Source: an uncultured Pseudomonadales bacterium (lineage in GTDB: Bacteria; Patescibacteriota; Microgenomatia; UBA1400; UBA1396). From it: a stretch of 64,000 nt of DNA. The notes beneath the pieces are model-generated. The model was not told the DNA's origin and made no database searches. It saw nothing but the letters and a program-made list of their open reading frames with translations. This document shows, one piece after another, positions 44,894 to 64,000 of the stretch. Within the stretch, counting starts at the first letter, position 1, and each line of letters starts with the position of its first letter. The DNA lies in NCBI GenBank assembly GCA_964511175.1, contig CAZEEI010000006.1, positions 73 to 64,072 on the forward strand, in the 5' to 3' direction. Position numbers and translations under genes: made by a program.

Positions 44894-44979
44894 AGGTTAT
44901 CTAGTTGATGAAGCAAGAAGGTCGTTTAGCTGCTCCTGAAAAATAGACACCAACTGCTGCATCATATGTCAATCCGAAA

Positions 44980-47221: not shown

Positions 47222-47701
47222 ATGCCTAGTAAAAATGCACGCAAAATTTTTAGGCCACAATCTTTTTACCATATTTATAACCGAGGCACGAAAAAACAAC
47301 CGGTATTTCTGCAGGAGAAAGATTATTGGCGGTGGCGTCAAATATTGGCGTCGACTTTGCTCGAATTTGAAGGCACCATTAGTATTACTCATTTTGCCTT
47401 TCTACCCAATCACCTGCATTTACTTATCTGGCAACAAAGCGAAAGAGATATTACCCGATTTATGAGAAAAATTACTAACCGATATGCGTTTTATTTACAG
47501 AAGGAATACAACTGGGTTGGCCACGTTTTTCAAGGAGTTTACAAGGCTAGTTATTTATACACCAAAAAAGAACGTCGCCGCATTGAAAAGTATATTCTAG
47601 ACAATCCTAAAAAACATGGATACGTCAACTGGAAACACGTTGGTAGAGGGTCAGACCTATGGCGGGGTCCGACCCCAGCCATAGGTCTGACCCCTCCCTA
47701 G
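47222..47701 (+). CDS. IS200/IS605-family Y1 HuH transposase-like protein (RAYT type), paralog 2
   Basis: IYNRGTKKQ and PNHLHLLIW HuH motif; C-terminal residues are read-through of REP. Confidence 0.7.
   Translation: MPSKNARKIFRPQSFYHIYNRGTKKQPVFLQEKDYWRWRQILASTLLEFEGTISITHFAFLPNHLHLLIWQQSERDITRFMRKITNRYAFYLQKEYNWVGHVFQGVYKASYLYTKKERRRIEKYILDNPKKHGYVNWKHVGRGSDLWRGPTPAIGLTPP
47646..47697. repeat. REP family A cluster downstream of RAYT paralog 2
   Basis: GGGTCAGACC...GGGGTCCGACCCC...GGTCTGACCCC seen directly. Confidence 0.65.
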
Positions 47702-50700
47702 GGGGCGACTTCGCGCCAATTAATCCGCGGCGCGCGCATTTCGGCTGGCACCCGCACCGCAAAATCGGGTCGATAACGGAAGACTTCCGCCGGAATCGTA
47801 TTATTTAAAACGCGGCGCGTCAAATTGTTATCGTAATTGCGGTTCAAGTCCACACCTTGCCAACCCACAAAGGTACCTTCGCCGACAAATTTATAATCGC
47901 CACCAGCGGCGGCTCCGCGGCTCGGCAACAACAGGGCGCCATTGGCAATATAAACACCTTCAATCACACCGTCGTTAGCGTCCGGCGTAGTGGGATCCGG
48001 ATGCCCCACCGAGCCGTCGATGATAATATCGCCTTGGACAACGAAGGCCAAAAAGCCACCATTATCCACCAAAACCGTATTTTTAATATTCAAATCGCCC
48101 GCCACAAAAATCACCAGCGACTCATCCGCCGCCACACTCCAACTATCCTGAATCGTGAGGTCGCCGCCGTGAAAATAAGCGTTAATGCCCGTATTCACTG
48201 GATCGGCCGTAGGCTTTTGGGCATCGGCCGCCGTCTCGCCAAAATCGCTGCTCGGGTTGGCCATAAATTTATACAGGCGGTAAAAGTAATCATAATTTTC
48301 CTGAGCAATCCGCGTATTCACCCGCCCAATACTGCGGCGATTATCCTCGTCCAGCTTAGTGGTTTGCAAACCCGTTTCCCGCGACAAATCCACATCGCCA
48401 CCACCGGTCAAAATCAGGCCCGCCGAATGAGACTGCCCCTCACTATTGCGCGCCATCAGGTAAGGTTTGCAGTTCGGCTCCGAGCAAGTATCAGGAATCG
48501 GGTCAGTAATCACGGTGCCGGTTTTGCCGAAAGCCATCACCGAACCACCTAGTGTCTGGAACCAAGGCTCACGCGCATCGGTAATATAAAAGTTCAAACC
48601 AGTTAGCGGCGCCGTTACCCCCGAAAAAGTGCAACCGATTGGACAGGAGCAAATGAAGTCGTTGGCGCGGTCGATAATCAGCGCCACCTGATTAGTGCCG
48701 GTATCCGAATAGGGCAGGTTAATCGTGTAAGTCCCGGCCGGTGTCACCGTAGCACTATCGGAATACTCCTGCTGGTAGTCATCACCGCGCACCGCTAGCG
48801 TACCTACGTCTACCGCCGAAATTTCGAACATCTCTACTTCCGCCAAGTACCAGTAACCGCCACTGGCACTGCCATAATTAGTGGAGGAGGCCGCCCGGAC
48901 ACGCCAGTAGCGATGGGGCGCGGAAGCATTCAAAAAATAAGTTTGGGTATTGCCGTCATTGGGTAAACTTACCGTTTGTAGTGTGGTCCAGTTGCTGTTG
49001 TCGTCAGAATAATCGATAAAAACACTATTAACCCGCCAGGTAGCACCCGGATACTGCCGAATTGTAAACTTCCGAATTTCTTTGGCACTGAGGTTGGTGA
49101 GCGTACCTTCCGTAGTGGCTTCACCGTTCTCGTCCAGCATCACCATGTTTTCGCCAAAATCTTGGCCAATCCAAGCCGTGTTGGCTACGGCATTACCATA
49201 TTGGGAACTTATCCAGTAAACCGCCGTGTTATTGTCAAAGGCTCGGGAAGCGACATACCCTGCCACATGCCCACCATCTACCGCATTGCCAGTGGTTGCT
49301 ACATCTGCACTAATTTCCGGCAAATCAGCGCCGGTACCAGTACAAGTCAGGGCACCCTCTAAAACGGCCGTATTATTGCCGTCATAGTAAACACTACCCG
49401 ATACCGGCGAAGTAGCAATGAAAGTTACCCAGTTGCTCCAGTTGCCATAAGTACCTTGGGGGTGGCAGAGGCGGTTATAACCCCGAACACGCGCCGTATA
49501 AAAACGCGTGTTGGCCGTAAAGCTGTATTGGTTAGTCAAATCGACCTCACCGGTAATCGCCGAAATCGACCCACCATCGGCGTGGATGGCAAAATTCGTT
49601 ACTCCCCAGCGATAAGTGCCGGTCAAGTTTTCATTGGCCAACAGCCGCCAGTAGCGGTGACTGGCCGGAACACTGAGATTAAACGTGTGCGCCACCGCAT
49701 CTTTAGGAAAAGTTAAGGTCTCCGAAGTTGTCCAAGTAGTACCGTTATCACTAAACTGGAGGTGGGCAGAGGAAATAGACCAAGTCGCCGCGTACTGCTG
49801 TAACACAACCCGACTCACCAATCTGGCTTTGCCTAAATCTTGACCGATCCAGGCGTTGCCAGCAATGGCCGTACCGGCCTGACTACTAAGCCAGGGGGTA
49901 TAAACAGAACTATCAAAAGCGTAATCATTCACGTAACCGCCATAGTCACCGCCGCTGAGCGCGCCGCCTACACTGGTCCAATTAACATCTGGGTTTTCAC
50001 TGGGATAAAGTTCAATGTAAAAATGATTACCCCAGGCGACTGACGTCCAACTAAGCGTAATCTGGCCGGCGCTATTCGCTATCGCTATACCACCCTCGAC
50101 GGGTGAAAGAATGGTTGGGGTTCCTGGCGCGGTTTTGCTTTCACCACCGCAGGTACCGCCACAACCGTCGTCCTGATTGCACTTGAGATTACAGTCGGGA
50201 TAACACGGGTCACCGCTACCGCCGCCACTAGGGCAAGGCAAGCCGCCGCACCAACCTAGGCCGCCGGCCCCGCCGGAACAGTCGCCACCATCCCAGGAAC
50301 CACCTTTGTCGGAGCAGGATCCGGGAGTTTCGCAGTTGCCGCAGTTATTGCCACCTCCGCCGCCACCTCCTCCTCCGCCGCCACCTCCTCCTCCGCCGCC
50401 TCCATTACATTCCTGATCGATCCAAGAGTTGCAGGTTTGCGTGGGAGCGCGGCAGCCGTTGATACAGCCGCCACAGAAGATTTGGCCGCCGGAACATCGG
50501 GAGTCACTGACAACATAACAAGAGGAGTTAATAACAAATGCACAACCCTGGTTATCGCAATTACCTGTTGGTTGACAAGGGATGGTGTGGTTACCACCAA
50601 CACAGATCTTAGCCGGAGCACAATTACACTCAAAAGTGCGAGGATCGTACCCACACTGGCACTCCTCTTGATAACCACCTTCACAGCACTCAATCCCATC

Positions 50701-50793
50701 TCCTTGACAAAGAGCCCGAACGTGAGAAGAAAACCCACCCCAAAAGACTAGTCCCGATAATACTAAGGCAAATAGTACTAGCTTTCTGATCAT
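47698..50793 (-). CDS. giant secreted surface protein: Cys-rich module, poly-Gly run, two discoidin (F5/8 type C)-like domains, C-terminal parallel beta-helix
   Basis: signal peptide MIRKLVLFALVLSGLVF; HRYWRLLANENLTGTYRWGVTNFAIH and HRYWRVRAAS...YLAEVEMFE discoidin-like; GGDLTIQDS...VAGDLNIKNTVLVDNGG beta-helix repeats. Confidence 0.65.
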   Translation of the reverse strand: MIRKLVLFALVLSGLVFWGGFSSHVRALCQGDGIECCEGGYQEECQCGYDPRTFECNCAPAKICVGGNHTIPCQPTGNCDNQGCAFVINSSCYVVSDSRCSGGQIFCGGCINGCRAPTQTCNSWIDQECNGGGGGGGGGGGGGGGGGGNNCGNCETPGSCSDKGGSWDGGDCSGGAGGLGWCGGLPCPSGGGSGDPCYPDCNLKCNQDDGCGGTCGGESKTAPGTPTILSPVEGGIAIANSAGQITLSWTSVAWGNHFYIELYPSENPDVNWTSVGGALSGGDYGGYVNDYAFDSSVYTPWLSSQAGTAIAGNAWIGQDLGKARLVSRVVLQQYAATWSISSAHLQFSDNGTTWTTSETLTFPKDAVAHTFNLSVPASHRYWRLLANENLTGTYRWGVTNFAIHADGGSISAITGEVDLTNQYSFTANTRFYTARVRGYNRLCHPQGTYGNWSNWVTFIATSPVSGSVYYDGNNTAVLEGALTCTGTGADLPEISADVATTGNAVDGGHVAGYVASRAFDNNTAVYWISSQYGNAVANTAWIGQDFGENMVMLDENGEATTEGTLTNLSAKEIRKFTIRQYPGATWRVNSVFIDYSDDNSNWTTLQTVSLPNDGNTQTYFLNASAPHRYWRVRAASSTNYGSASGGYWYLAEVEMFEISAVDVGTLAVRGDDYQQEYSDSATVTPAGTYTINLPYSDTGTNQVALIIDRANDFICSCPIGCTFSGVTAPLTGLNFYITDAREPWFQTLGGSVMAFGKTGTVITDPIPDTCSEPNCKPYLMARNSEGQSHSAGLILTGGGDVDLSRETGLQTTKLDEDNRRSIGRVNTRIAQENYDYFYRLYKFMANPSSDFGETAADAQKPTADPVNTGINAYFHGGDLTIQDSWSVAADESLVIFVAGDLNIKNTVLVDNGGFLAFVVQGDIIIDGSVGHPDPTTPDANDGVIEGVYIANGALLLPSRGAAAGGDYKFVGEGTFVGWQGVDLNRNYDNNLTRRVLNNTIPAEVFRYRPDFAVRVPAEMRAPRINWREVAP
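50351..50403. repeat. 18-bp tandem repeat (GCCGCCACCTCCTCCTCC)n encoding 19 consecutive Gly
   Basis: seen directly within 47698-50793. Confidence 0.6.
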
Positions 50794-51275
50794 ATTTTCA
50801 CCAATTTCACCACCTCCGGCACACAATACTGTCGCAACGCTGCCCGCTGACTGACAGCAACCACACCGGACTCAATGCCGTCCAAGATTATATTTTGCCA
50901 ACTGTCTTCCAGCGAAGCGATTGCTTCCTCAGTAACATTCTTATTATCATTGACTGCTTTTAAGTGGTTAGTATTAATATAAATAGCTACCCTTCCTTGC
51001 AAAATAGGGGTGGCTCCCACCAAAGGCAGATTGGAACCATCTTCTTGGGTAAGGCTATACATGACAAACTTGTCAGCCGCGGGATCACTGATCACCTCAA
51101 TCCGATCAACCAAGATACCAGCCGACGTTAAGCAAGATTTTAACCGATCCAAGTAAAAAGGATAAGCAAAGTTACGATTTTGATTCTGCGTTTGCCAGTA
51201 CCAGAAGATACTATATCCCAATAACGAACCCAAAAAAAGTAAAACCGCCAAGAGGAGCACCCAACGCGAACGCAT
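50790..51275 (-). CDS. N-terminally membrane-anchored protein (161 aa)
   Basis: ATGA overlap with downstream giant gene; N-terminal TM. Confidence 0.5.
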   Translation of the reverse strand: MRSRWVLLLAVLLFLGSLLGYSIFWYWQTQNQNRNFAYPFYLDRLKSCLTSAGILVDRIEVISDPAADKFVMYSLTQEDGSNLPLVGATPILQGRVAIYINTNHLKAVNDNKNVTEEAIASLEDSWQNIILDGIESGVVAVSQRAALRQYCVPEVVKLVKI

Positions 51276-51323: not shown

Positions 51324-52694
51324 TTACTGCTTAGGAGTGATGGGCTCAAAAGTAGCTTCAGCCGCAGCCATGGTAGGAGTAGGGGTACGCGGCTCTCCTT
51401 CAACCCGAGGATTAAGTACCACCACAGACATCCCCTGCGATGGTCGACGCAGCTGAGCCTCAAGAGTGGTATCATAGCCCGCCGTTAACTCAGCCATAAT
51501 TAGGTGGCGTAACGCTTCGCTGCCCGGCTGACAAGCCGACTCACCGAATTGCTGGGCGCACTGAGTGTTCAACTCGTGATATTTATGCAGCCAGCCGAAA
51601 GGTGCCACCATGGCCAGGTTTGTGAACGATACTTCATAAGCTAATGAGTCTCCGCCCAGGTAGACCACCAATTGATTGCTACCCTGTTCCGATACCATAG
51701 GATCAAAATACGCATTTGGCAACTCATGCATCCCGCCGTCGGGTCCTTTATAGCTGGAGTTATAATTAACCCCCTTGGGCATTGCCATCGGAGCGGTAAG
51801 AACAACATTAATTACATCACCTCGTACCTCGAAGTCACGTGCACCAGTCTCGTTTTCTCCCAACTCTGGCCACTCCAAAGTTAATTTACTATTGAATATC
51901 GCTTCATCTGAAGAAAAACTAGCCACCGTTAAGGGTTTGCTGGGATCATAGTCACTCCCCAACATAGCCTCGACGATCGCCCCAATTTCCGCCTCAGAAC
52001 CATCTTTCGGCAACATGATACCGGGAAAATCCACCGAGAAGTTTTCCAAATTTTCCAAATTAGCAAACCAATTAATAGTAAACGGCTTTCCGTTAACCAT
52101 AATTTGCATCGTCTTTAATTTCGTCCCCACCACCTCTGGAAATTCAGTCCATTCCGGGTGTTCGGTCAAAACCGATTCCACCTGCGGCACTTGCGTCTCC
52201 TCTACCGTTGGCGTTTCTTTAGCATCCGGTGTAGGTGCTGGTGTAACTCTGGGTTCAGCGGTTTGTAGAAAGGTATTCCCATGTCCTTCCCTAGCCACAA
52301 AACCACTAAACGCTTCCCATTCCGTAGCACCTGGCCGTAGAATCTGGGTAACCTGCCACCAATCATAACCATCGCCAGTATCGGCAACATCAACCACTTG
52401 AAGTTGTGTTCCCGCGGGTAGACTTTCCAAAATGTTAGTGCCCGCAGTACCGACAGTATCGCGAACATTAACTTGCCCTAAAACTTGAACTGTTTGCGAG
52501 GCATCGGGAGTAGCTTCTTGCCCAAAAACAGGCAAAACTTCGCCAGCACCCAGAAGAACCGCTCCTATTGCTCCGGTAGTCTTAGGATGTCTCACTGCCC
52601 AACGGAGCACATCAGCAGGGGCGGTAACAATTCTACGGAAAACCCCTTTTGACCGTTCTGGTTGACCTAGGCTTGCTTCTTTTCCCACTCTCAT
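51324..52694 (-). CDS. secreted hypothetical protein (456 aa)
   Basis: N-terminal signal region; PTPDAKETPT linker; first gene of 3-gene co-directional unit. Confidence 0.5.
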   Translation of the reverse strand: MRVGKEASLGQPERSKGVFRRIVTAPADVLRWAVRHPKTTGAIGAVLLGAGEVLPVFGQEATPDASQTVQVLGQVNVRDTVGTAGTNILESLPAGTQLQVVDVADTGDGYDWWQVTQILRPGATEWEAFSGFVAREGHGNTFLQTAEPRVTPAPTPDAKETPTVEETQVPQVESVLTEHPEWTEFPEVVGTKLKTMQIMVNGKPFTINWFANLENLENFSVDFPGIMLPKDGSEAEIGAIVEAMLGSDYDPSKPLTVASFSSDEAIFNSKLTLEWPELGENETGARDFEVRGDVINVVLTAPMAMPKGVNYNSSYKGPDGGMHELPNAYFDPMVSEQGSNQLVVYLGGDSLAYEVSFTNLAMVAPFGWLHKYHELNTQCAQQFGESACQPGSEALRHLIMAELTAGYDTTLEAQLRRPSQGMSVVVLNPRVEGEPRTPTPTMAAAEATFEPITPKQ

Positions 52695-53086
52695 ATTTAT
52701 ACCCTCTATCCTTTTTCTCTAGGCTCCTATCGCCTAAAATAAAAATCCTACACCCCAAAATACCTTCTATTTCGGCTTATAGGACTCATTAAAACCTGAT
52801 TATAACAGCTCAGCTCACGAAAAAGCAAGCTTCAGCTTTTTGTGAATTGACACTTTTGACTTCGCCAAATGTGTCAACAACTAAAGCGAGAAACACCTGC
52901 TATCCACAAAATGAGTCCATGACTGAGTAGTAAAAACAGGCTCCATCTTCTCTTTGCAACACGACAACCTTTACCCGTTTGTAACTTTTGTCTGTTTTGA
53001 ATTCTGCCTTAAACTCCACTACTGCTTCAAAAGTAAAATAGACGGAACCATTTTGGTAGCAGATGTATTGGTAGGTCCCGGAATCC

Positions 53087-53803
53087 CTAATTGTGACTCG
53101 CTTCGTCTTTTTCTAGTAAAACAATTTTAAATCCGCCCACAAAGTTGGTCATAGCTTTTTGAGAAAACCAACCTATTGGCAAAAATATTACCCTAAATAT
53201 TTCATAAAATAGTAGCGACCTCTTAGGTAGCGGAATATATCCTTCTTTAACCCTCTTAAGTCCTGCCCTGGAGAATAGTCGAATTAATTGATTTTCATTG
53301 TAATGGTGTATATGGCCATACTTAATTCCGCTCTCCTTCCATGGGTCTCGTATTTTTAATTTCCTCAGGATTTTGTTATCGAAAAACGAATCTTCCAGGG
53401 GAACCTTAATAAGTATCTGTCTGCCCAATGTTTTGACCTTCCTTAAGAAAGCCAAATCAGCACTAACATGTTCGAGAATGTCTATACATGTGATTAAATC
53501 GAATTGTTGTTTTGGTCGATAGTTAAAAATGTCAATGTTAATCCATGAGATGGTTTTGGTTGTGTTACATTTTTTTGCCATCTTTATCATTGTTTTAGAA
53601 ATATCTATTCCTACTGTTTTCTGAGAATGTAAAGTGTGGGCTAAAACCGCAGTTATTTTTCCTGCACCACAGGCAACATCTAAGAGACTGTTAACTTGAA
53701 TGTCTCCCAAAAAACTTAAAATCTGTTTGGCTTTCGTTTCTGACTGCTCAAAATGCAGCAGAGGATTTTTTTTAATATATTCATTTTGATAATCCATAAA
53801 CAC
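53087..53803 (-). CDS. class I SAM-dependent methyltransferase
   Basis: motif I LLDVACGAGKITAVLA, motif post-I D-I-S, ITCIDILEHV; AT-rich island. Confidence 0.7.
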   Translation of the reverse strand: MFMDYQNEYIKKNPLLHFEQSETKAKQILSFLGDIQVNSLLDVACGAGKITAVLAHTLHSQKTVGIDISKTMIKMAKKCNTTKTISWINIDIFNYRPKQQFDLITCIDILEHVSADLAFLRKVKTLGRQILIKVPLEDSFFDNKILRKLKIRDPWKESGIKYGHIHHYNENQLIRLFSRAGLKRVKEGYIPLPKRSLLFYEIFRVIFLPIGWFSQKAMTNFVGGFKIVLLEKDEASHN

Positions 53804-53808
53804 CTTGC

Positions 53809-54789
53809 TTATTCTTGGATTGATAAGACATGATCTATAACTTTTTTTGCTGTGGAATTTTGCAAAATAAAAACTTTGGATTCTAGTTCTGAAAAAGGCA
53901 CAAACTCACGAACATTAGTTTCAAAACCATTTTTTTGAGGAATAAAAGGCTTCAGAATATCAACATCTGCCAAATATCGTAGGTGTTGGAACTTAGAAAC
54001 AAGTCGTCCATCCTTACTTAATTCGATAAGTATAGATCCGAGAAATTTCACATTTTTGCAAGTTATTTGTGCTTCCTCAAGCAATTCCCTGCGCAGACAA
54101 TCTTCTGGACTTTCCCCAAGCTCACAACCACCTCCAGGGAGACTAAAATAACCCTCCCCACGGTCTCTAACGATACAAAATTTACCTAATTTATCTTTAC
54201 AGAATGTAAATACCTGTGTTACAGGAATGTTCTTAAGTATTTTATTGGGATGGTAAGTGAACTTTGCCCGATATTTTTGATTTTCAAAACTCTTCACGAC
54301 ATATTTAAGAATTTCCCACATTTGATGATTATCGTCTCTGCTACTCATTAGTAGGAGGGCGTTTTTTGGTGAAAATAACCCCCGCGCAGACGTTTCTAAG
54401 GGCTGCCAATCAGGATCAACCTTTGTTACAAATGAAGTAGTAATTGGCAGAATGCTAACGGGCGGGTATTTTAAGTCTGAAGAATCACGAATATTGTCGT
54501 TCCTAATGTATCCCACTACTCTTATTGATGATGTAGAGATACGTACACCTCCTTCTTCATAAGCTTCTCTAACAAGGGTATCTTGATATGTTTCCCCAGC
54601 CTCAATATGCCCTCCTAGAGGGTTCCACCATCTATTTTTGTCTAGGCACAAGACAACTTTCGTTCCAATGAAGGGAAAAGTAAATGGTGTCGATATTGGA
54701 ATTCCAGAAGGTAGTTTGTCATTTTCAACAAACTGAAAGGTAGTTTCCCTCTTGTCATTTTTTATTGTATATTTTGAATAACTGATCAT
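53809..54789 (-). CDS. tandem Nudix hydrolase (two Nudix boxes)
   Basis: GGHIEAGETYQDTLVREAYEEGGV and PGGGCELGESPEDCLRRELLEEAQI both fit GX5EX7REUXEEXGU. Confidence 0.75.
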   Translation of the reverse strand: MISYSKYTIKNDKRETTFQFVENDKLPSGIPISTPFTFPFIGTKVVLCLDKNRWWNPLGGHIEAGETYQDTLVREAYEEGGVRISTSSIRVVGYIRNDNIRDSSDLKYPPVSILPITTSFVTKVDPDWQPLETSARGLFSPKNALLLMSSRDDNHQMWEILKYVVKSFENQKYRAKFTYHPNKILKNIPVTQVFTFCKDKLGKFCIVRDRGEGYFSLPGGGCELGESPEDCLRRELLEEAQITCKNVKFLGSILIELSKDGRLVSKFQHLRYLADVDILKPFIPQKNGFETNVREFVPFSELESKVFILQNSTAKKVIDHVLSIQE

Positions 54790-54837
54790 AGTTGCTCATG
54801 GATGAGTGAATTGTAGACCTGTGTATTTTTGTAATGC

Positions 54838-55461
54838 TCATGGAGTTGCTTCTTTGATGAACCCGACTGGAGAATCATGAGTAATGACTACAGGTTTTAA
54901 GTACCGGAGCCTGCCAATTCGTTCACCAAAGTCACAGACAGCCGAATATAAGCGAACAGCATAATCTCTATAATTTTCCCCGTATGACAAAAAGTTATCT
55001 TTGAGTTTAGGATACCGAAGTTTTCCGTGAGAATATGGACTACCAAAACGATATAGCAAATTGTGATCGTCGATAAAAGTCTCTGACCAAAAAATTTGCC
55101 ATGCATCAGCGAGTGGTTCAAAAAAATCGCCCGGTCTATATCCAGGGGGGAAAACAAATTTCCCTTGATCTAGTTCTCTTAAATTGTGGTTAATGATCAA
55201 AGAAACTCTAAATTGATCACCAGATTGTATAATTCCTCTTTGAATAATTTGAGCCGTCTCCATTGCTCTCTTTTTGGGAGATGATATTAGTGCAATCCCG
55301 TGGTAATCCTGCTGTTTCGCTTCTTGCACCAACTGGGTACCAAATGCAATGGCTATCCTGTCTTGGTTTGGAGCCAGTGGATTGTCGGTACCATTCTGCA
55401 CAAGATTATCAATATCCTGCAGATGTCTTATAACTGCTAAAGATTCAACTGCTGAAGGCAT
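54838..55461 (-). CDS. histidine phosphatase superfamily (PGM/SixA branch) protein
   Basis: N-terminal VIRH and SSPKKRAMETAQI (RHG / SPLxRAxxTA-like) motifs. Confidence 0.5.
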   Translation of the reverse strand: MPSAVESLAVIRHLQDIDNLVQNGTDNPLAPNQDRIAIAFGTQLVQEAKQQDYHGIALISSPKKRAMETAQIIQRGIIQSGDQFRVSLIINHNLRELDQGKFVFPPGYRPGDFFEPLADAWQIFWSETFIDDHNLLYRFGSPYSHGKLRYPKLKDNFLSYGENYRDYAVRLYSAVCDFGERIGRLRYLKPVVITHDSPVGFIKEATP

Positions 55462-55502
55462 GTGTCGCCATAGTATAATTCATCTTATAGGATTGCACAA
55501 TT

Positions 55503-56645
55503 ATGTTTAACAAAGAAATTGTTCTCTTAACACCAAGAGCTTCCTATTATGTCGGTGGGGGTGAGAAGGTACCAATCAAACAAGCTCAGGAGCTTGCCCG
55601 TCTGGGTCAAAAGGTCCATCTAGTTACTCAGAAAGTACCAGAAAACAGCATGTCCTCAATGTACGGAGATCTTAGGGCCAACAATCAGAGTGGTGTCTTC
55701 ATTCACGAGGTTCCAATTAGAAGGCTTGGTGCCCCACATGTAGTAGATCCAGAAACCGATCCTAGTGTATGGAATTCGGAGAGTTTTGCTTTTGCTTCAG
55801 CAACGATTGGTTTAATGAAAGAAATCGGCCCATATGCCGTGTTGTCTTATTACCTATTAGACGGACTCATTCGCCCTCATGAAGGTAAGAACCTAGTATA
55901 TCTGCTCGGAAATCCACCTGAACCTCTGCAGTTGGGAATTCCTATGATGAGAATGTACGATGCTGACATTTCCATAAGTTCGGTTGTAAAAAATCACTGG
56001 CAGCAGTATGTAACAGAGAGAAAAACGCGTTATTTATTACCCACCGGTGTGGAATTACCTAAAGATTCTGAGCTAAAAAACAAAGAACCTTCAGCGCAGG
56101 TACTATTTCTAGGTAGGCTTATAGAGCGGAAAGGTGTATCAACCTTACTACATGCTTTTTCCAAAGTGTTGCAGGATAACCCTAGTGCCCATTTAACTAT
56201 CGCTGGTGATGGTCCAATGCGTGAGACACTCGAGAGAATGACGAGTGACCTTCAAATGCAGGCCAATGTATCATTCACGGGTTTCGTTAACTCAAAGCAG
56301 ATACAAGAACTTTTCAATAATGCCGATCTATGTGTTTTTCCATCATATGAGGGGGAGGGATTATTGGGCGTAGTCTTGGAATCCATGGCATCGGCTAAAG
56401 CAGTCATTGCAACCACAGGTAACGGAAACGAAGACATAATTTGCTCTGCAGAGAACGGCATTCTCGTTGAGCCTAGAAACGTAGAGATTCTAGCAAAAAA
56501 TATCGAGATACTACTTTCTCATCCTGACTATGCAAAGACCCTGGGAAAACGAGCTAGACAATTTGTCAAAGATAATTTGACCTGGGAGCAACATGTGAAG
56601 CAACTCTTATCCATCTTGGACGCAGTTAATGTTGTTTTTAGATAA
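55503..56645 (+). CDS. glycosyltransferase family 4
   Basis: EGEGLLGVVLESMASAKAVIAT E-x7-E motif; GT-B layout. Confidence 0.75.
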   Translation: MFNKEIVLLTPRASYYVGGGEKVPIKQAQELARLGQKVHLVTQKVPENSMSSMYGDLRANNQSGVFIHEVPIRRLGAPHVVDPETDPSVWNSESFAFASATIGLMKEIGPYAVLSYYLLDGLIRPHEGKNLVYLLGNPPEPLQLGIPMMRMYDADISISSVVKNHWQQYVTERKTRYLLPTGVELPKDSELKNKEPSAQVLFLGRLIERKGVSTLLHAFSKVLQDNPSAHLTIAGDGPMRETLERMTSDLQMQANVSFTGFVNSKQIQELFNNADLCVFPSYEGEGLLGVVLESMASAKAVIATTGNGNEDIICSAENGILVEPRNVEILAKNIEILLSHPDYAKTLGKRARQFVKDNLTWEQHVKQLLSILDAVNVVFR

Positions 56646-56693
56646 GTTCCAATACCTATTGTTTTTTCAACAATACTAAAACTTCCTAAACAA

Positions 56694-56722
56694 CAAAAAA
56701 CCGTCTCAGGGACGGTTCTTTG
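56694..56722. terminator. hairpin ACCGTC-TCAGG-GACGGT flanked by A6 and T-rich tract (bidirectional terminator candidate)
   Basis: seen directly 50 nt after GT4 stop. Confidence 0.4.
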
Positions 56723-56783
56723 CTTGCTTCTTCCCGATTGGGAAGGGCACCTGTCTGATAAGGAATGTATGGAAAATATTCCC

Positions 56784-56850
56784 TTTTGTCAATCCCTTGT
56801 ACAGGTCACACACCTTTGGCACTACCGTCACTATGGGGTCAGATTTGGCT
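56784..56850. repeat. ~70 bp repeat, copy 1 (TTTTGTCAATCCCTTGTACAGGTCACACACCTTTGGCACTACCGTCACTATGGGGTCAGATTTGGC)
   Basis: diverged copy of 57424-57495 / 58063-58155. Confidence 0.5.
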
Positions 56851-56949
56851 GATAGAAATAAAGCGTGACCTACCAAATCGACCAGTCGGGAAAAATCGAA
56901 CAAACGGAAAGAAATACGGTTATTGCTTGCATCAACGGCAACACCATAG

Positions 56950-57336
56950 TTGTTTTTCTGGATAAAAGAGAAAAGAGAAAAAAGAAAACTGCAAAGATTT
57001 TTCCGAAGCGCCGGCCTGACAAAACTATTTCCTTACCTAACTTTCGCCGCACTTCTGGCCTTGGTGTTGGCAAGACTGGATACCACCCAAAAGATAACTA
57101 TCGATCGGGAATATCTTGGCCACGAGGACCTGATTGAGCAAAAAATCAAAATCTATACAGCTGCTTTAGGAATAAAAAGAACAATTTATCTGCAATTTGG
57201 GCATGTCGGTAAATTATCTCGGGCTCATCAGTTGGCCTACCGGGTGGCTCGCGGCAAAATTACGGCCAACTATGTCGCACACGCCAACGAAATAATACAG
57301 ATGATCACCGGAACAAAAAAGATCGGGACTACCTAA
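56950..57336 (+). CDS. hypothetical protein (128 aa)
   Basis: ORF only, AT-rich island. Confidence 0.3.
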   Translation: MFFWIKEKREKRKLQRFFRSAGLTKLFPYLTFAALLALVLARLDTTQKITIDREYLGHEDLIEQKIKIYTAALGIKRTIYLQFGHVGKLSRAHQLAYRVARGKITANYVAHANEIIQMITGTKKIGTT

Positions 57337-57423
57337 CTCAGGATTGTTTACCTGGCGATCAGTAATCTACCGACCTTTTATGGCCTTTAATCTAGCACGT
57401 CAAGAGTTTTTTGTCAAAAATTT

Positions 57424-57495
57424 TATGCAGGTCACGATACATTTGGCACTACTGTCATTATTCGGTCAGCTTTATCAGCTAAAAATAACTCTGTT
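57424..57495. repeat. ~70 bp direct repeat, copy 2
   Basis: ~90% identical to 58084-58155; immediately upstream of NYN gene ATG at 57500. Confidence 0.55.
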
Positions 57496-57499
57496 AGTT

Positions 57500-58018
57500 A
57501 TGCCATCGACAAAACATCTCTCCTGTACTACTTATGCCTTTATTGATGCCTCCAATATTATCTATGGCGCCCGCTCGGGAAATTGGTTAATCGATCAACA
57601 AAAATTGTACTATTACCTCCAAAACAAATATCAAGTTACTAAAGCCTTTTTTTACTACGGCAAAGATTCGAATAGTCTAAAAAAAGAGCGGTTTCTGCAT
57701 AAGTTAAGCGTGTTTGGTTACATCTTGCGAGTCAAAACAATCAAGCATTTCGGCCATAAAGCGAAAGCTAATTGTGATGTCGATTTGACGATGGATATGC
57801 TTTTATTCAGAAACCAATATAGTCGGGCAATTGTTCTCTCCGGCGATGGTGACTTTACACCTCTGCTGGCTTACTTAATTAAGCAGGGAAAACAAATTAT
57901 TGTGATTACCTTTCCTGACCGAACCGCTCGAGAATTAAAAAAATTGTTGGGCGGAAAAGTGCAATCTTTTAATGACCTGCGCGCTCTACTTGAGTACAAA
58001 AAAAGAGGGAGGCCCTAA
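57500..58018 (+). CDS. NYN-domain (LabA-like PIN-related nuclease) protein
   Basis: YAFIDASNIIYG ... CDVDLTMDMLL ... AIVLSGDGDFTPLL; start placed at MPSTKHL (listed ORF starts 57344 inside the repeat). Confidence 0.65.
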   Translation: MPSTKHLSCTTYAFIDASNIIYGARSGNWLIDQQKLYYYLQNKYQVTKAFFYYGKDSNSLKKERFLHKLSVFGYILRVKTIKHFGHKAKANCDVDLTMDMLLFRNQYSRAIVLSGDGDFTPLLAYLIKQGKQIIVITFPDRTARELKKLLGGKVQSFNDLRALLEYKKRGRP

Positions 58019-58062
58019 AGTAGTACCTTCCCTCAGTGTTATGAATTAATAGTACTAATAAA

Positions 58063-58155
58063 GTCTTGTTTTGTCAACTTTTTGTACAGGTCACAATACA
58101 TTTGAGACTACTGTCACTATTCGGTCAGCTTTATCGGCCAACAATAACTCTGCTC
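58063..58155. repeat. ~70-90 bp direct repeat, copy 3
   Basis: TTTTGTCAACTTTTTGTACAGGTCACAATACATTTGAGACTACTGTCACTATTCGGTCAGCTTTATCGGCC... Confidence 0.55.
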
Positions 58156-58471
58156 AAACAAGACCCTTATCTTGCTATTAAATCAGCAATAATGTACAAT
58201 GTGTGCGCAGTCTAATCTTGGTAAACAAGAAAGGCGCAGTGTGGGGTAGGTAGGCAACCACCGGCGGTGGGCCCCCAGACTAAGGGGGTGGGTGCCGCAC
58301 TCCTAGAACGCCTGATTCTCGTGTTTTTTGGTTGTACTTCCTGGTCTCTGATCGTGCTTATCGAAATGCTGGTACTAGGCTTCCCTCATTTTTCGACTTT
58401 TACCATAATTTTTCTGGTTTGTTACCGCCTAAACCAGCACTGGTGGCACAAATCACGTGCTCCGCCTCAAA

Positions 58472-59545: not shown

Positions 59546-59645
59546 GTTTAGCACGCTGAGGGTGTAACCCTCCAGAGGTGGGAAACTTCAGGGTGACACC
59601 CTGTCGCGATTTACCTCTGGAGGGTTACACCCTCAGCGTGCTAAA
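59546..59645. repeat. REP family B: ~100 bp element with perfect 33-bp inverted arms (TTTAGCACGCTGAGGGTGTAACCCTCCAGAGGT ... ACCTCTGGAGGGTTACACCCTCAGCGTGCTAAA)
   Basis: seen directly; fills the divergent intergenic region between 58472-59536 and gap. Confidence 0.65.
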
Positions 59646-59655
59646 CTGGCCGTAT

Positions 59656-60717
59656 ATGTCAAACATTGCTATCAACGGTTTTGGCCGCATCGGCCGCACG
59701 TCTTTTCGAGTTTGGTGGGAGAGATTTCGCGACCGCAGCGCGTTGGTGGCGATCAACACTTCTGGTTCTGCGGAGTTGGAAGCTTGGGCTCATTTGCTCA
59801 AATACGATACCAATTACGGTGTTTGGCCGCACGAAATTCGGGTTAACCGTTGGCGCAGCGTGAAGGAATTGGACGATAACAACTGTGAACTAGGTACTTT
59901 CGAAATTGAGGGGCGCACGATTACCGTTACCGCTCAACGCGACCCGGCCAAAATTCCCTGGGGCAAGTATGGTGTCGATATTGTCATTGAATCGACTGGT
60001 GCTTTTCTGACGCAGGAAAAAGCTGGCGCACACCTGAGCGCCGGTGCCAAGGCTGTAATTCTTTCTGCTCCCGCCAAAGAAGACGATATTGAAACGGTGG
60101 TGCTAGGAACCAAGCCCGAGCATCCGAGTCTGCCGGCCAACCGCATTATTTCGAACGCCTCCTGTACGACTAATTGTGTGACGCCGGTGGCGGCCATTAT
60201 GCACGAGACTTTTGGTGTGCAAAAAGCCCTCATGACCACGGTGCACGCCTATACGGATGATCAAAATGTTCAGGACAACTCGCATAAAGATCTGCGCCGC
60301 GCTCGCTGCGCGGCGCGCAATATTGTACCGACTACCTCTGGTGCGGCCAAAACTACGGGTAAAGTTATACCGGAGTTAGCGGGTATTTTTGATGGACTGG
60401 CCATTCGCGTTCCAGTTTCCACTGGCTCTTTGTCCGATTTGACCTTTGTTACCTCCCGACCGACTTCGGTGGAGGCTGTAAACCAAGCCTTCATTGACGC
60501 GTCCCAGTCCGAACGCTGGCGCGGGATTTTGGCCGTAACCCACGATCCGATCGTGTCGCAGGATATTGTAGGTCGCCCCGAATCAGCGATTGTTGATTTG
60601 GCTCTAACGCAAGTAATTGGTGGCGATTTAGTTAAGGTAATTGCCTGGTACGACAACGAGTGGGGTTATTGCAACCGCTTGATTGAACTGGCTGAGGGTG
60701 TCACCCTCCAGGCGTAG
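59656..60717 (+). CDS. gap: glyceraldehyde-3-phosphate dehydrogenase
   Basis: MSNIAINGFGRIGR NAD-binding start, active-site SNASCTTNCV; start set at ATG 59656 (listed ORF begins inside REP). Confidence 0.9.
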   Translation: MSNIAINGFGRIGRTSFRVWWERFRDRSALVAINTSGSAELEAWAHLLKYDTNYGVWPHEIRVNRWRSVKELDDNNCELGTFEIEGRTITVTAQRDPAKIPWGKYGVDIVIESTGAFLTQEKAGAHLSAGAKAVILSAPAKEDDIETVVLGTKPEHPSLPANRIISNASCTTNCVTPVAAIMHETFGVQKALMTTVHAYTDDQNVQDNSHKDLRRARCAARNIVPTTSGAAKTTGKVIPELAGIFDGLAIRVPVSTGSLSDLTFVTSRPTSVEAVNQAFIDASQSERWRGILAVTHDPIVSQDIVGRPESAIVDLALTQVIGGDLVKVIAWYDNEWGYCNRLIELAEGVTLQA

Positions 60718-60748: not shown

Positions 60749-61213
60749 TTGGTCAGTTTCTTTGGTTACACTCTTTCCATGCCACAAAAAAATCGTCTCT
60801 TTCCTTTCGTAGCTGATGCCCATTACCACATCTACAATCGCGGCACTAATCGACAAGAAATTTTCTTAGATGACAAAGATTACTGGATTTTTCGCCATAT
60901 TTCGAGAAAAAAACTAAGAAACTGTGGCGACGAAATATCGCTGATGGTTTTTTCTTTGTTGCCGAATCACTACCATTTTTTATTGCATCAAAAATTGGAG
61001 CGCAGTATTTCGGCATTTATTAAGTCGATTGCAATTCGTTATGGCATGTATCTACGTAAAAAATATGACCACGATGGACGGGTTTTTAGTAGTAGCTATC
61101 ACGCTGTTTTGCTTCCCAATCAAGAAGCTATTGATCAGGCCAAAGAATACATTTTAAAAAATCCGATTAAGGCCGGTTTGCTTAACTGGAAACACGTTGG
61201 GAGCAAGATATAG
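60749..61213 (+). CDS. IS200/IS605-family Y1 HuH transposase-like protein (RAYT type), paralog 3
   Basis: IYNRGTNRQ, PNHYHFLLH HuH motif, C-terminal YILKNPIKAGL. Confidence 0.7.
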   Translation: MVSFFGYTLSMPQKNRLFPFVADAHYHIYNRGTNRQEIFLDDKDYWIFRHISRKKLRNCGDEISLMVFSLLPNHYHFLLHQKLERSISAFIKSIAIRYGMYLRKKYDHDGRVFSSSYHAVLLPNQEAIDQAKEYILKNPIKAGLLNWKHVGSKI

Positions 61214-61291
61214 GGTGTAACCCTCCAGAGGTGGGAAACTTCAGGGTGACACCCTGAGATTTTCTACGCCTGGAGGGTTACACCCTCAGAG
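61212..61291. repeat. REP family B element (nested palindrome) between convergent RAYT and pgk
   Basis: AGGGTGTAACCCTCCAGAGGTGGGAAACTTCAGGGTGACACCCT...CCTGGAGGGTTACACCCTCAGAG. Confidence 0.65.
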
Positions 61292-62305
61292 GACGAATTC
61301 GAGATCTTTTTCCCAAGAGAAATTGGCTTGGCTTTCCTGAATGGCTTCGTAGGCCGGCAGAGTTCCATCGGCTAGTAGTTCCATCATAGCGCCACCACCT
61401 GTAGAGATGTGCGAAAACTGCTCGCGTTTGAAACCCAGCAAATCCACCGCGGCTTCGGTGTCACCGCCACCCAAAACCGAATATACCTTAGATCGAGCCA
61501 AAGCATTAGCAATGTAGGTGGTTCCCGCCGCATGCACCCCATCCTCATATTTACCAACCGGGCCATTCCAAACCACCGTTTCCGAGGCCTTAATGAAACG
61601 CTCAAACTGTTCCAGTGAATCTTGAGTTAGATCCAAGCCATCCGGCGTTAAATCACCCACAATCACCTTGCTATATCTAGCTTCCAGCTCTTGTTTATGA
61701 CCTTGCGCTAAAGCGCCGCCAATCAGAAAAACGTTCACTTTATCGATCAATCGGTCAATGAAGGCCAGCTTATCCGGTTTGGCGCCGCCAAAAATAAAAG
61801 TGTAAGGACGATTAGGATGGTGGGCAATTTTGCGCAACACCTTCATTTCTTTTTCGAACTGGCGACCCATGACGGTGGGTAGCAAATAAGGCAAAGCAAC
61901 CATGGAAGCGTGCTCGCGGTGAGCAGTCGCAAAAGCGTCGTTAACGTAAAAATCAAAACCCTTGGCCAATTGCTTGGCAAAAACTTTACTGTTCTTTTCC
62001 TCGCCAGGATCATAGCGCAGGTTGTCACCGAAAGTGACGCGGTCGAGGTGTTTAGCCGAAATCATTGGTTTGAGCAAATCGATAATTGGATCCAGGGACA
62101 ATTTTTTGATCTTCTTACCCTCCGGCCGGCCGCGGTGGCCGATCACGTGTACCTGAGCCGCGCCGCGTTTGAGCAAAAAATTCAGCGTTGCAGCACCGGC
62201 TTCCAAACGGGTGGTATCAAAACCGTCTTTATTCTCCGGCAAGTCGAGGTCGAGGCGCAGGAGGACGTGTTTGTCTTTAAAGGTGATAGCTTTGAGGAAA
62301 TACAT
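61286..62305 (-). CDS. pgk: phosphoglycerate kinase (short form, 339 aa)
   Basis: N-terminal LLRLDLDLP...HVIGHRGRP and C-terminal ISTGGGAMMELL, VVWNGPVGKYE PGK motifs. Confidence 0.8.
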   Translation of the reverse strand: MYFLKAITFKDKHVLLRLDLDLPENKDGFDTTRLEAGAATLNFLLKRGAAQVHVIGHRGRPEGKKIKKLSLDPIIDLLKPMISAKHLDRVTFGDNLRYDPGEEKNSKVFAKQLAKGFDFYVNDAFATAHREHASMVALPYLLPTVMGRQFEKEMKVLRKIAHHPNRPYTFIFGGAKPDKLAFIDRLIDKVNVFLIGGALAQGHKQELEARYSKVIVGDLTPDGLDLTQDSLEQFERFIKASETVVWNGPVGKYEDGVHAAGTTYIANALARSKVYSVLGGGDTEAAVDLLGFKREQFSHISTGGGAMMELLADGTLPAYEAIQESQANFSWEKDLEFVL

Positions 62306-62650
62306 AGGGTGGATTATACCAGGTAAGACTAACGTCTTGAAGACGAACTCTTCTTTGATATCACGATGGTGTAAAAGCCAGATTAAAAACAGAAACTATT
62401 GTTGATAATAGCCACACTAAGGAAACAACAACTATAACTCCACCAATAGTTGTTATTAATAGCCTTAAAAATCAATAAGGTAGTTGATTCTTTGGCATTT
62501 TTGATTTTTGTTTTTGAAAGAAATAAATACTTAAGGGCCAGTCAATAAAAGGCAATAAAATTAATGATAAATAAACAAGCACAGCCAAATCCCACAAGAT
62601 ATCACCACTTCGCAAATAATGACCATGTAACAGATAATATTTTCATATTT

Positions 62651-63013
62651 CTATTTAGACAAAACCACAATCGCTACAACTACTGGTATGGCTAGGAACA
62701 CGGTAATTATACTAACAACAACTCCTCCCCAAATTCCTATTCCCACAATTTTTATGAAACTTTTAACCGATGCAGTCACCGTACCATCACTGGATTGAGT
62801 AGCAAAATAAATAATCAAGGGAACATCAAATAAAGGAATTAAAAATGTGCTATGAATAAGTAGATAATAAATACTGATTAATGTGTCTGTCCGGTTATTG
62901 GCCAGAGAAGGTGAAAAAACATAGTTAAGAAGCAGTGACTTAAGTATGTAACTTAACCAAATTGTGAAGTGAAGGTGTTTAAAGATAGCTTTTTGACCAG
63001 AAATTAGTTGCAT
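62651..63013 (-). CDS. small membrane protein (120 aa), tandem paralog A
   Basis: 3-4 TM; similar to 63049-63435 (…IYY.L..S..LIP..D.P..I…). Confidence 0.4.
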   Translation of the reverse strand: MQLISGQKAIFKHLHFTIWLSYILKSLLLNYVFSPSLANNRTDTLISIYYLLIHSTFLIPLFDVPLIIYFATQSSDGTVTASVKSFIKIVGIGIWGGVVVSIITVFLAIPVVVAIVVLSK

Positions 63014-63048
63014 TTTAGTAATTTAATATAGGGATATCTCTCCTTGAT

Positions 63049-63435
63049 CTAAAAATTAATAGGCTCATACGGAATCTGCCATAAGAATGTTGGGCTTAAG
63101 GTCAAAAAAGCCAAAAATAGGCTGATAATCACTATTGCTATAACACTTACTATGACTTTTCCAAAAGATAAAATTAAACTCTTGATATTTTTATCTTTTT
63201 TAAATGAAGAATACAAAAAAATTAAAATTGGTAAATCTAAAAAAGGAATGAGTAGTATTGAATAAAGCAAGAAGTAATATATTCTAATCAGCAAATCGCC
63301 TGGAAAAAAAGTAATTTTATCCCATGGAGTTGTGTGAGCAAAAACCGATATTACTAGAAACTTAACACTGTAACTCATTAAGAGATAGGGGAAAACTGCT
63401 CGAGAGGTATCCATTGGCGAATGATTATGTTTCAT
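63049..63435 (-). CDS. small membrane protein (128 aa), tandem paralog B
   Basis: paralog of 62651-63013. Confidence 0.4.
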   Translation of the reverse strand: MKHNHSPMDTSRAVFPYLLMSYSVKFLVISVFAHTTPWDKITFFPGDLLIRIYYFLLYSILLIPFLDLPILIFLYSSFKKDKNIKSLILSFGKVIVSVIAIVIISLFLAFLTLSPTFLWQIPYEPINF

Positions 63436-63444
63436 AATAAGTTG

Positions 63445-64000
63445 TTACCGAACTCCTATTGATTCTGCCAACATTTCAACTATACCCGGGGTAACGTCGT
63501 TGGATTCTCCCATAGCCAAAGCAATGGCGTGTCCTAGTTGTCTTTGCCTCAAGTCATCGGCATTGTCTTCAAATTGGCCTAATGATCCTGGATTAACACC
63601 CTGAGTTGTATTGGCAATAGCATCCTCTGTTGTTCCAGGGAAACCATATCTTTCCATATGAAATCCATATACGATGTTGCCCAATCCTGATAAATCCATT
63701 GTCCTTGTTCCAACTTTATAAGTGAATCCCGAGCAAGTTTTACTTTGACTAGCAGCAGCCTCATTTAGTTTTTCTTCAACAAAATGTCTGAAATTCTCTG
63801 CCTGCCCAATCAACTCCATCAGATAACCAAACGCAGCACTGTTACGCGATATTGGATCAGAATAACCAGCAATCCACTGAGCGTAACGACTAACTTCTGT
63901 AGCAATAATATCCCCACCGTTTTTGATTTCACAAGAAACAGGATTAAAAATAAAATCATAAAATTGACTCCGTGGTTCGTAATATGTAGAAACTAATATA
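63445..64000 (-). CDS. hypothetical protein, 5'-truncated by window edge (reading frame stays open to position 64000)
   Basis: minus-strand frame continues upstream of listed Met without stop to the window end. Confidence 0.4.
   Translation of the reverse strand, partial: ILVSTYYEPRSQFYDFIFNPVSCEIKNGGDIIATEVSRYAQWIAGYSDPISRNSAAFGYLMELIGQAENFRHFVEEKLNEAAASQSKTCSGFTYKVGTRTMDLSGLGNIVYGFHMERYGFPGTTEDAIANTTQGVNPGSLGQFEDNADDLRQRQLGHAIALAMGESNDVTPGIVEMLAESIGVR

Follow-up and report, generated by a model that had tools for sequence, protein, structure and literature searches.

Contig CAZEEI010000006.1 (assembly GCA_964511175.1) contains an AT-rich locus at which genes for a class I S-adenosylmethionine (SAM)-dependent methyltransferase, a protein with two Nudix domains, a histidine-phosphatase homologue that we call X, and a GT4 glycosyltransferase lie side by side. 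An earlier note on this DNA had proposed that these four genes specify a pathway for the modification of a nucleotide derivative. Open reading frame (ORF) calls and Pfam searches found all four genes at the places and in the families that had been named, and comparison with related loci uncovered the last codons of a GT2 glycosyltransferase gene between the tandem-Nudix gene and X. On balance, we favour the explanation that the four ORFs are the remnant of a cassette conserved in Patescibacteria, whose intact form would be a soluble pathway of glycosyl transfer, Nudix hydrolysis and phosphate removal that acts on an acceptor bearing phosphate or pyrophosphate. Positions below are those of the whole 64-kb stretch of the contig that was analysed (the window), lengths of proteins are in amino acids (aa), and the labels L001 to L026 denote the genome and metagenome loci that were compared. 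The locus comprises the following features.

53087 to 53803, minus strand: class I SAM methyltransferase (Pfam Methyltransf_23, Methyltransf_25 and Methyltransf_11, 8e-17 to 2e-13)
53809 to 54789, minus strand: tandem-Nudix protein, 326 aa, intact (Pfam NUDIX, 5e-25, in two stretches)
54786 to 54869, minus strand: remnant of a GT2 gene, its final 27 codons and stop codon (tblastn)
54869 to 54873, minus strand: deletion junction (comparison of DNA and protein with L005, L008 and L009)
54838 to 55461, minus strand: truncated X, 207 aa (Pfam His_Phos_1, 1.9e-5; tblastn and alignment to seven X orthologues)
55462 to 55502, no strand: divergent intergenic spacer of 41 bp between X and GT4 (ORF coordinates)
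55503 to 56645, plus strand: GT4 glycosyltransferase (GT-B fold), 380 aa, intact (Pfam Glycos_transf_1, 4e-40)
52650 to 58200 (approximate), no strand: low-GC tract, 39.4% GC (composition profiles)

Two lines of evidence indicate that a deletion has joined X to the very end of a GT2 gene in the window. The first comes from X itself, which is 207 aa long as compared with 267–305 aa in its homologues. Identity to seven X orthologues is 32–65% by tblastn and alignment, and this homology ends at ...VVITHDSP, near residue 198, whereas the orthologues run on for a conserved segment of about 75 residues; the 207-aa ORF owes its final nine residues to the GT2 remnant, read in the wrong frame. The second comes from the remnant, which is 56–67% identical over 27 aa to the GT2 proteins of L005, L008 and L009 (tblastn, E values of 2e-5 to 5e-4) and lies at the exact syntenic position. 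Its translation, SGSSKKQLHEHYKNTQVYNSLIHEQL, matches the ...SGSMEKQL.EHK.NT..YN.LIH.QL of the homologues, its frame differs from that of X, and its stop codon overlaps the ATG of the Nudix gene (ATGA), just as in the intact loci. At the junction the X codons for ITHDSP run, with a change of frame, into the GT2 codons for (HPSR)SGS, and a few bases are common to both sites. The deletion amounts to about 1.7 kb relative to L005 and fuses codon ~198 of X to the final 27 codons of GT2; GT2 is thereby gone, along with the conserved ~75 residues at the C-terminus of X. The genes for the methyltransferase, the Nudix protein and GT4 retain their full length. An identical junction is present in a second assembly (L018, a Logan contig from SRR8925769). 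The remnant of GT2 has diverged no further from its homologues than the intact genes have from their own, and for this reason the deletion is probably of recent date.

The earlier note had taken X for a phosphatase of the PGM/SixA type. That X is a homologue of the histidine phosphatases holds; its assignment to the ordinary type does not, for the gene in the window is a truncated orthologue of X (65% identical to the X of L005 by tblastn) and not of the canonical histidine phosphatase found with the cassette elsewhere. Its match to His_Phos_1 is weak (24.9 bits against a cut-off of 21.7), and the full-length X of L005, at 17.1 bits, falls below the His_Phos cut-off. Profile comparison indicates that X is a histidine-phosphatase homologue, which appears to form a separate, atypical family: hhalign matches the X family to the canonical histidine phosphatases of the cassette with a probability of 96.8% (E = 2.8e-10), the RH, S..RA.ET and (T/S)H motifs being aligned, and the first of these reads RH(L/F) in X and not RHG, the catalytic motif of branch 1 of the superfamily. 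In the window only four native residues follow the second catalytic histidine, as opposed to about 50 in canonical phosphatases, and the 207-aa protein is most likely not functional.

To place the locus among its relatives we searched with the tandem-Nudix protein, which recovered about 37 full-length relatives as well as half-proteins fused to a histidine phosphatase, and we read the neighbourhoods of these genes and of additional genome and metagenome loci, about 20 in all. In the tandem protein two different kinds of Nudix domain are joined, here called NudN (residues ~4–168) and NudC (residues ~175–320). A profile search of 1.84 billion cluster representatives gave no more than 72 hits at E ≤ 1e-30; some 30 of these are tandem proteins of full length, and in the others NudN or NudC stands alone or in a different fusion. 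About a dozen loci of Patescibacteria, from Saccharibacteria, Taylorbacteria, Collierbacteria and a UGA-recoded lineage, carry a cassette with the core order X (~270–305 aa, unannotated or with a faint His_Phos match), GT2 (~520 aa), tandem Nudix and GT4 (~380 aa). The block X-GT2-Nudix-GT4 is found in L001 (Taylorbacteria), L003, L004, L005, L008, L009, L010, L011, L012 and L014 (Saccharibacteria), and in L026, usually with overlapping stop and start codons. GT2 lies directly upstream of the Nudix gene in 12 of the 16 tandem-Nudix loci examined, the exceptions being the window, L013, L023 and L025. Variant orders also occur, namely X-GT2-GT4-NudN (L016) and X-GT2-GT4-HisPhos::NudN (L017). NudN stands alone after GT4 in L016, in L015 and L017 it follows the phosphatase as the second half of a His_Phos::Nudix protein (48–51% identity), and NudC is a separate gene in L015 and L019. 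L025 contains, at 594–2195, a 533-aa ORF in which an N-terminal extension of ~230 aa with a HELLH (HExxH-like) motif precedes the tandem Nudix domains.

Several accessory genes accompany this core. The commonest is the SAM methyltransferase (L003, L005, L011, L012, L015, L019, L022, L026 and the window). A canonical histidine phosphatase of ~190 aa is present in L001, L004 and L008, its place being taken by HAD-IA or Cof-type HAD-IIB phosphatases in L005, L009, L010, L017 and L019; an APH-fold kinase is present in L004, L008 and L010, and a GalE gene that scores above its equivalog cut-off adjoins the cassette of L009. We found no transmembrane-like segments in the core proteins and no exporter, flippase or lipid-carrier gene conserved with the cassette. 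Three features argue for Nudix and phosphatase steps that follow one upon the other within a single process shared with both transferases: a phosphatase can be fused to NudN, unrelated folds take its place from locus to locus, and the Nudix gene is coupled translationally to the transferase genes on either side of it. The functional linkage postulated for the window is thus borne out: in about a dozen independent loci relatives of Nudix, GT4, X and, in many cases, the methyltransferase lie side by side, with overlapping and fused genes. These findings run counter to the refutation that the earlier note had set for itself, namely genes co-conserved in no other genome, each most similar to an unrelated housekeeping enzyme.

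The intact locus closest to the window is L005, whose proteins are identical to those of the window at 70% (GT4), 68% (methyltransferase), 65% (X) and 63% (Nudix). L005 has the same divergent GT4 layout, but a HAD phosphatase gene lies between its GT4 and X, and its two HAD genes are absent from the window. An expanded and rearranged cassette occurs in the Collierbacteria locus L019 (MFAP01000001.1, 2701–13585), with separate NudN and NudC among four separate Nudix genes, an NDK-like gene, a HAD gene, two methyltransferase genes and a stand-alone CYTH gene; its first methyltransferase is 66% identical to that of the window, as compared with 27–36% for the other shared genes. One gene of L019 carries the label PF27840 ('ScmC') in a precomputed table, a label that we set aside, having found no match to it in the Pfam copy used and nothing relevant in the literature. 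L026 (Ga0256843_1005541, 368–5594) holds a complete cassette including the methyltransferase at 26% GC. We considered and rejected the idea that this copy is pseudogenised: all of its in-frame stop codons are TGA, and we therefore assign it to a UGA-recoded lineage. Losses are seen elsewhere, the Nudix gene being frameshifted in L023 and standing alone in L013 and L024.

Measured against these loci the window does not contain a full cassette with all four core genes intact in one cluster, since X is truncated and GT2 is reduced to 27 codons, and with the GT2 gene and the 3′ end of X deleted the module is probably defective or incomplete in this genome. The proposal that the four genes are a complete pathway at work here, yielding a modified nucleotide-sugar or an adenosine diphosphate (ADP)-ribose-like metabolite, accordingly strikes us as quite improbable. 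It can draw on the co-conservation of the four gene families, on the methyltransferase, Nudix and GT4 genes being intact and of full length, and on L015, where a methyltransferase, HisPhos::NudN and NudC occur with no glycosyltransferase within 6 kb, so that a sub-module of Nudix and methyltransferase may work alone. It is at odds with the GT2 gene that directly precedes the tandem-Nudix gene in most loci and of which the window retains 27 codons, with an X that stops four residues past its second catalytic histidine, and with the result of tblastn searches with the cassette proteins, which found no accessory phosphatase or kinase gene in the window.

The methyltransferase belongs to the class I SAM-dependent enzymes, with a Rossmann-type SAM-binding domain (Methyltransf_23, 61.9 bits against a cut-off of 27; Methyltransf_25, 54.3 against 27). 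Its homologues begin at residue 3, and its true start is therefore probably the ATG at 53797. The homologues in L005 and L019 both adjoin a cassette Nudix gene. No NCBIfam equivalog model was reached by any of the four proteins, all hits lying far below the cut-offs; the methyltransferase accordingly gains no substrate class from this source, and none of the genes qualifies by this measure as a known housekeeping enzyme.

By both box and fold the tandem protein is a member of the Nudix hydrolase superfamily. Of the two complete Nudix boxes described in the earlier note, the first (G60-V82, residues 60–82) fits GX5EX7REUXEEXGU exactly, and the second (G220-I242, residues 220–242) fits save for a Q in place of the last G, a substitution seen across the whole family in a 36-sequence alignment. 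An AlphaFold2 model (pLDDT 94.5) has two Nudix folds with TM-scores of 0.70–0.76 to BsRppH and Ap4A hydrolase. The note had asked whether the Nudix specificity is of the ADP-ribose, nucleoside diphosphate (NDP)-sugar or dNTP type, and for the first two the answer was negative: the protein scored 24.7 bits against a cut-off of 248 with the ADP-ribose diphosphatase model and 26.5 against 79.6 with the YffH/AdpP model. ADP-ribose diphosphatases carry a proline ~15–16 residues after the Nudix box; neither proline nor tyrosine is found 15–18 residues past either box of the tandem protein. NCBIfam, a PDB sequence search, Foldseek on the model and this Pro/Tyr signature together did not assign a substrate, and the similarities found by the PDB search and Foldseek are generic (MutT-, RppH-, Ap4A- and NudC-like, with a NUDT15-like fold as well).

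The generic character of these folds raises the possibility that Nudix, phosphatase and methyltransferase are ordinary enzymes of nucleotide-pool house-cleaning that happen to lie beside unrelated glycosyltransferase genes. Their likeness to MutT, NUDT15 and RppH is what this idea would predict, the flanks of L005 hold further Nudix genes together with Maf and an inorganic pyrophosphatase, and mycobacterial MutT1 combines a Nudix domain and an RHG histidine-phosphatase domain in one protein (PMC11784022). The cassette resembles MutT1 in that a Nudix hydrolase and a branch-1 histidine phosphatase occur together, as a single protein in L015 and L017, and in the implied logic of sequential phosphate removal from a nucleotide. 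The resemblance ends there, for MutT1 has an N-terminal Nudix domain followed by a C-terminal phosphatase, the reverse of the L015 and L017 fusions (His_Phos, then Nudix); in the window the two are separate genes; the MutT1 equivalog model scores 20.7 bits against a cut-off of 475; and MutT1 is not known to be linked to glycosyltransferases. Since, moreover, the adjacency to GT2 and GT4 is kept across very divergent lineages, with overlapping codons and through changes of gene order, we regard house-cleaning as very improbable.

The GT4 protein is a member of the retaining GT4 family with the GT-B fold (Glycos_transf_1, 137.6 bits against a cut-off of 26.4, over a protein of 380 aa). It is 70% identical to the GT4 of L005 and 31–39% identical to the remaining cassette GT4s. 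Its PDB matches are all GT4 enzymes, TarM and PimB' among them, and the best is sucrose-phosphate synthase (6kih, 1.8e-19), in the C-terminal half only (residues 196–367, donor-binding). This match invites comparison with routes in which a small glycoside, such as a compatible solute or a storage oligosaccharide, is made through a phosphorylated intermediate, as by sucrose-phosphate synthase and its phosphatase or by GpgS and GpgP. The synthesis of mycobacterial methylglucose lipopolysaccharide (MGLP) likewise combines a glycosyltransferase, a histidine phosphatase, a GT4 enzyme and methyltransferases. The cassette shares with these routes a soluble GT4, a phosphatase that is always present and of interchangeable fold (His_Phos, HAD-IA or the Cof/SPP-type HAD-IIB) and a frequent, optional methyltransferase; all of its proteins are soluble, and GalE lies beside the cassette of L009. 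That the intact cassette makes such a glycoside is nevertheless unlikely in our estimate. The resemblance to sucrose-phosphate synthase is confined to the donor-binding half, no family-specific model was matched (the glucosyl-3-phosphoglycerate synthase model gave 20.7 bits against a cut-off of 262), and two obligatory Nudix domains, a CYTH-like domain and an NDK-like gene would have no role in pathways of this kind, which are not known to contain Nudix or CYTH proteins.

The GT2 protein, of which the window keeps only the end, is best described from the other loci; its family has more than 115 members. Its GT-A domain (residues ~240–510) has as neighbours K4CP (the chondroitin polymerase), TarS and TarP, RmlT and the ppGalNAc-Ts. 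Its N-terminal ~165 residues appear to be CYTH-like, an assignment that goes back to transitive PDB hits of one divergent family member, P0163, whose N-terminus matches 2een at 2.8e-7 and 2dc4 at 1.7e-3, the aligned parts of which score in turn as Pfam CYTH (3e-18 and 1e-28). Consistent with this assignment, an AlphaFold2 model of GT2 (pLDDT 90.7) has a strand-rich N-terminal domain, all beta plus a helix, and one family member is named 'glycosyltransferase/adenylate cyclase class IV' by JGI. When the alignment of GT2 N-termini was compared by hhalign with two cassette-linked CYTH proteins, the probability was only 8%. CYTH genes of the stand-alone kind also occur next to the cassette in L019 and L021. 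GT2 would be linked by homology, through this divergent member, to the CYTH or triphosphate-tunnel metalloenzymes (class IV adenylate cyclase, thiamine triphosphatase, PH1819/2een), from which it differs in that the domain is fused to a glycosyltransferase; in the window the domain is absent through the deletion of the gene. The acidic motif of ExExK type has been lost in the clade closest to the window, and for this reason the domain is probably not a catalytic tunnel there.

The neighbours of the two transferases lend themselves to another interpretation, in which the intact cassette glycosylates a macromolecule, either a polyol-phosphate polymer of the cell wall in the manner of TarS, TarP and TarM or a protein in the manner of the ppGalNAc-Ts, with the Nudix and phosphatase enzymes tuning the NDP-sugar pool. 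A pool-tuning role of this kind is ascribed to Gmm/WcaH, encoded beside WcaI in colanic-acid loci, and to Rv2609c beside PimA. In these loci gmm/wcaH is next to wcaI and Rv2609c next to pimA, both partners being GT4 genes; the Nudix enzymes are single-domain proteins thought to act on guanosine diphosphate-mannose, and the loci have lipid carriers or exporters. The cassette resembles them in having a Nudix gene directly beside a GT4 gene in one operon, and differs in its two distinct Nudix domains, its phosphatases, its CYTH-like::GT2 protein and its lack of any membrane component. Likewise, the pairing of a soluble GT-A GT2 with a GT-B GT4 recalls TarS/TarP (GT2) and TarM (GT4), which are structural and sequence neighbours, yet identity is only 17–19%, no genes for teichoic-acid synthesis or export are linked, and TarS and TarP carry C-terminal trimerisation domains rather than an N-terminal CYTH-like domain. 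We judge a macromolecular acceptor to be rather unlikely. In its favour are the closest folds of the GT-A domain, the TarM and PimB' matches of GT4 and a TupA-like ATP-grasp gene that adjoins L017; on the other side, no flippase, ABC exporter, polyprenyl-phosphate transferase or membrane protein is conserved, the core proteins are without transmembrane-like segments, the CYTH-like domain is left unexplained, and a coupled Nudix gene between the transferases, the invariable presence of two Nudix types and the Nudix-phosphatase fusions exceed what regulation of a sugar pool would need.

The composition of the locus bears on how the cassette came to be in this genome. The four genes have a GC content of 38.9%, as compared with 48.8% for the remainder of the window, and their GC content at third codon positions is 0.28–0.38, against 0.44–0.56 in neighbouring genes. 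The low-GC tract is wider than the AT-rich segment first described and takes in, besides the remnant cassette, a 128-aa ORF, a gene for a NYN-domain protein (Pfam NYN, 1.8e-20) and three copies of a ~90-nt repeat. Elsewhere the cassette has a GC content of 0.23–0.41, near or somewhat under that of its own flanks, whereas the copy in the window is ten points under its flanks; for this reason the suggestion that the segment was acquired is plausible, and we infer a lower-GC relative as its source. A search of the tract borders for repeats and features revealed no direct repeats bracketing the cassette, no integrase and no tRNA, and a scan for promoters and terminators gave chance-level results only.

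The repeat is an element of ~80–92 nt with copies at 56784–56861, 57402–57493 and 58061–58152, 72–85% identical and spaced 627 and 659 nt apart, that bracket the 128-aa ORF and the NYN-domain gene within the low-GC tract. Since copy 2 falls within the 5′ end of the NYN ORF as called, this gene probably starts near 57500. The element has no significant predicted RNA structure and no fourth copy in the window. Two paralogous ORFs for IS200-like Y1 (RayT-like) transposases, at 47222–47701 and 60749–61213 and 45% identical, both lie on the plus strand and flank ~13 kb that contains the low-GC tract. Other low-GC tracts of the window (1–3000, 44001–45000 and 62001–64000; 35–42% as compared with ~50%) suggest that the contig carries several acquired or otherwise atypical segments.

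At other loci, too, the surroundings of the cassette are of note. The cassette of L004 (6816–10824) adjoins GmrSD, an EcoRI-type methylase, and a CD-NTase with Cap15, which belong to the cyclic oligonucleotide-based anti-phage signalling system (CBASS), and that of L008 (1651–4836) adjoins an MmeI-like restriction-modification enzyme, which suggests that the cassette tends to occupy accessory islands. It has been proposed that the genes in the window could be a defence-related module, and one could cite for an anti-phage or conflict system, in addition to the CBASS, GmrSD and restriction-modification genes beside L004 and L008, the low-GC island with its neighbouring NYN nuclease-like gene and a weak match to Pfam GT4-conflict. 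The searches lend it no support. PADLOC and PHROGs returned only domain-level hits, those of PADLOC being generic ones to methyltransferase, Nudix and NYN domains, with none for X, GT2, GT4 or the canonical phosphatase; viral contigs (IMG/VR) held no relatives of the tandem-Nudix protein and only generic GT-A matches to GT2; and at most loci the neighbours are ordinary genes. A role in defence thus seems to us extremely improbable.

Some further features of the window lie apart from the cassette. An Rfam scan of the window found three tRNAs and nothing else, one of them a tRNA-Ile with the anticodon UAU (20825–20899, minus strand), which is uncommon in bacteria. A 1042-aa ORF at 47698–50826 (minus strand), with a cysteine-rich N-terminus, a run of ~20 glycines and two F5/8 type C (galactose-binding-like) domains, probably encodes a surface protein. 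The ORF for phosphoglycerate kinase at 61286–62305 (minus strand), near that for GAPDH (59578–60717), is only 339 aa long, its best Pfam stretch covering profile positions 2–218 of 379, and may be shortened or have a mis-called start.

How the intact cassette would work, on the explanation that we favour, can be set out as a sequence of steps. Two sugar-nucleotide-dependent transferases would add sugars to an acceptor that bears phosphate or pyrophosphate and is most likely nucleotide-linked: one, an inverting GT2 tethered to a CYTH-like, putatively phosphate-binding module, and the other, a retaining GT4. A uridine diphosphate (UDP)-hexose donor is suggested by the adjacent GalE and by the K4CP- and ppGalNAc-T-like folds. 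The two Nudix domains would then cleave a pyrophosphate bond, the histidine or HAD phosphatase would take off the remaining phosphate, and the methyltransferase, and in some loci the kinase, could optionally decorate the product. Since every protein is soluble and the cassette comes without genes for export or for lipid carriers, the product would be expected to stay in the cytoplasm. The pointers towards a nucleotide are the CYTH-like domain on GT2, the stand-alone CYTH genes nearby and the NDK-like gene of the Collierbacteria version, and to this extent the idea of a nucleotide-derivative pathway finds some support, even though the four genes of the window are not the complete set that had been supposed.

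Several observations weigh against this explanation. No substrate is assigned, both Nudix domains being generic small folds of the MutT/RppH/Ap4A type, and the structural neighbours of the GT-A and GT4 domains act mostly on polymers or lipids and not on nucleotides. The Pfam CYTH model matches no member of the GT2 family directly, and in the clade nearest the window, where YFLIKK stands in the position at which P0163 has ECELR, the CYTH-like domain may bind no phosphates. As to the remnant, both assemblies with this junction may go back to one sample or one set of reads, a GT2 or a phosphatase could be encoded outside the 64 kb analysed, and the three intact genes may still be useful without GT2.

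Taking the argument one step further, we put forward, tentatively and as a rather doubtful extension, that the intact cassette is a Patescibacteria-specific pathway to a glycosylated, sometimes methylated or phosphorylated, small molecule derived from a nucleotide, such as a signal, a cofactor-like compound or an antimetabolite; the degenerate CYTH domain would hold the (poly)phosphate of the acceptor, and the Nudix enzyme together with the histidine or HAD phosphatase would release the product. If this were so, the cassette would represent a nucleotide-derived small-molecule pathway whose chemistry and combination of enzymes are undescribed. The earlier note knew of no operon with such a set of genes, and we, too, found no account of the cassette in the searchable literature on Patescibacteria or the candidate phyla radiation that deals with Nudix, glycosyltransferase, histidine-phosphatase and CYTH proteins, nor any description there of the architectures that it brings together (CYTH-like::GT2, Nudix::Nudix and His-phosphatase::Nudix). 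The cassette is thus an uncharacterised, lineage-restricted combination of known enzyme folds. As a deletion remnant, the copy in the window is the wrong one to study, and the intact loci L004, L005 and L008 are preferable. The locus would nonetheless be a clean example of how a reduced genome gains an accessory pathway horizontally and then lets it decay. The genomes of Patescibacteria are very small and encode few biosynthetic pathways, and the fact that the cassette is nevertheless kept across lineages argues that its product is probably important for their lifestyle.

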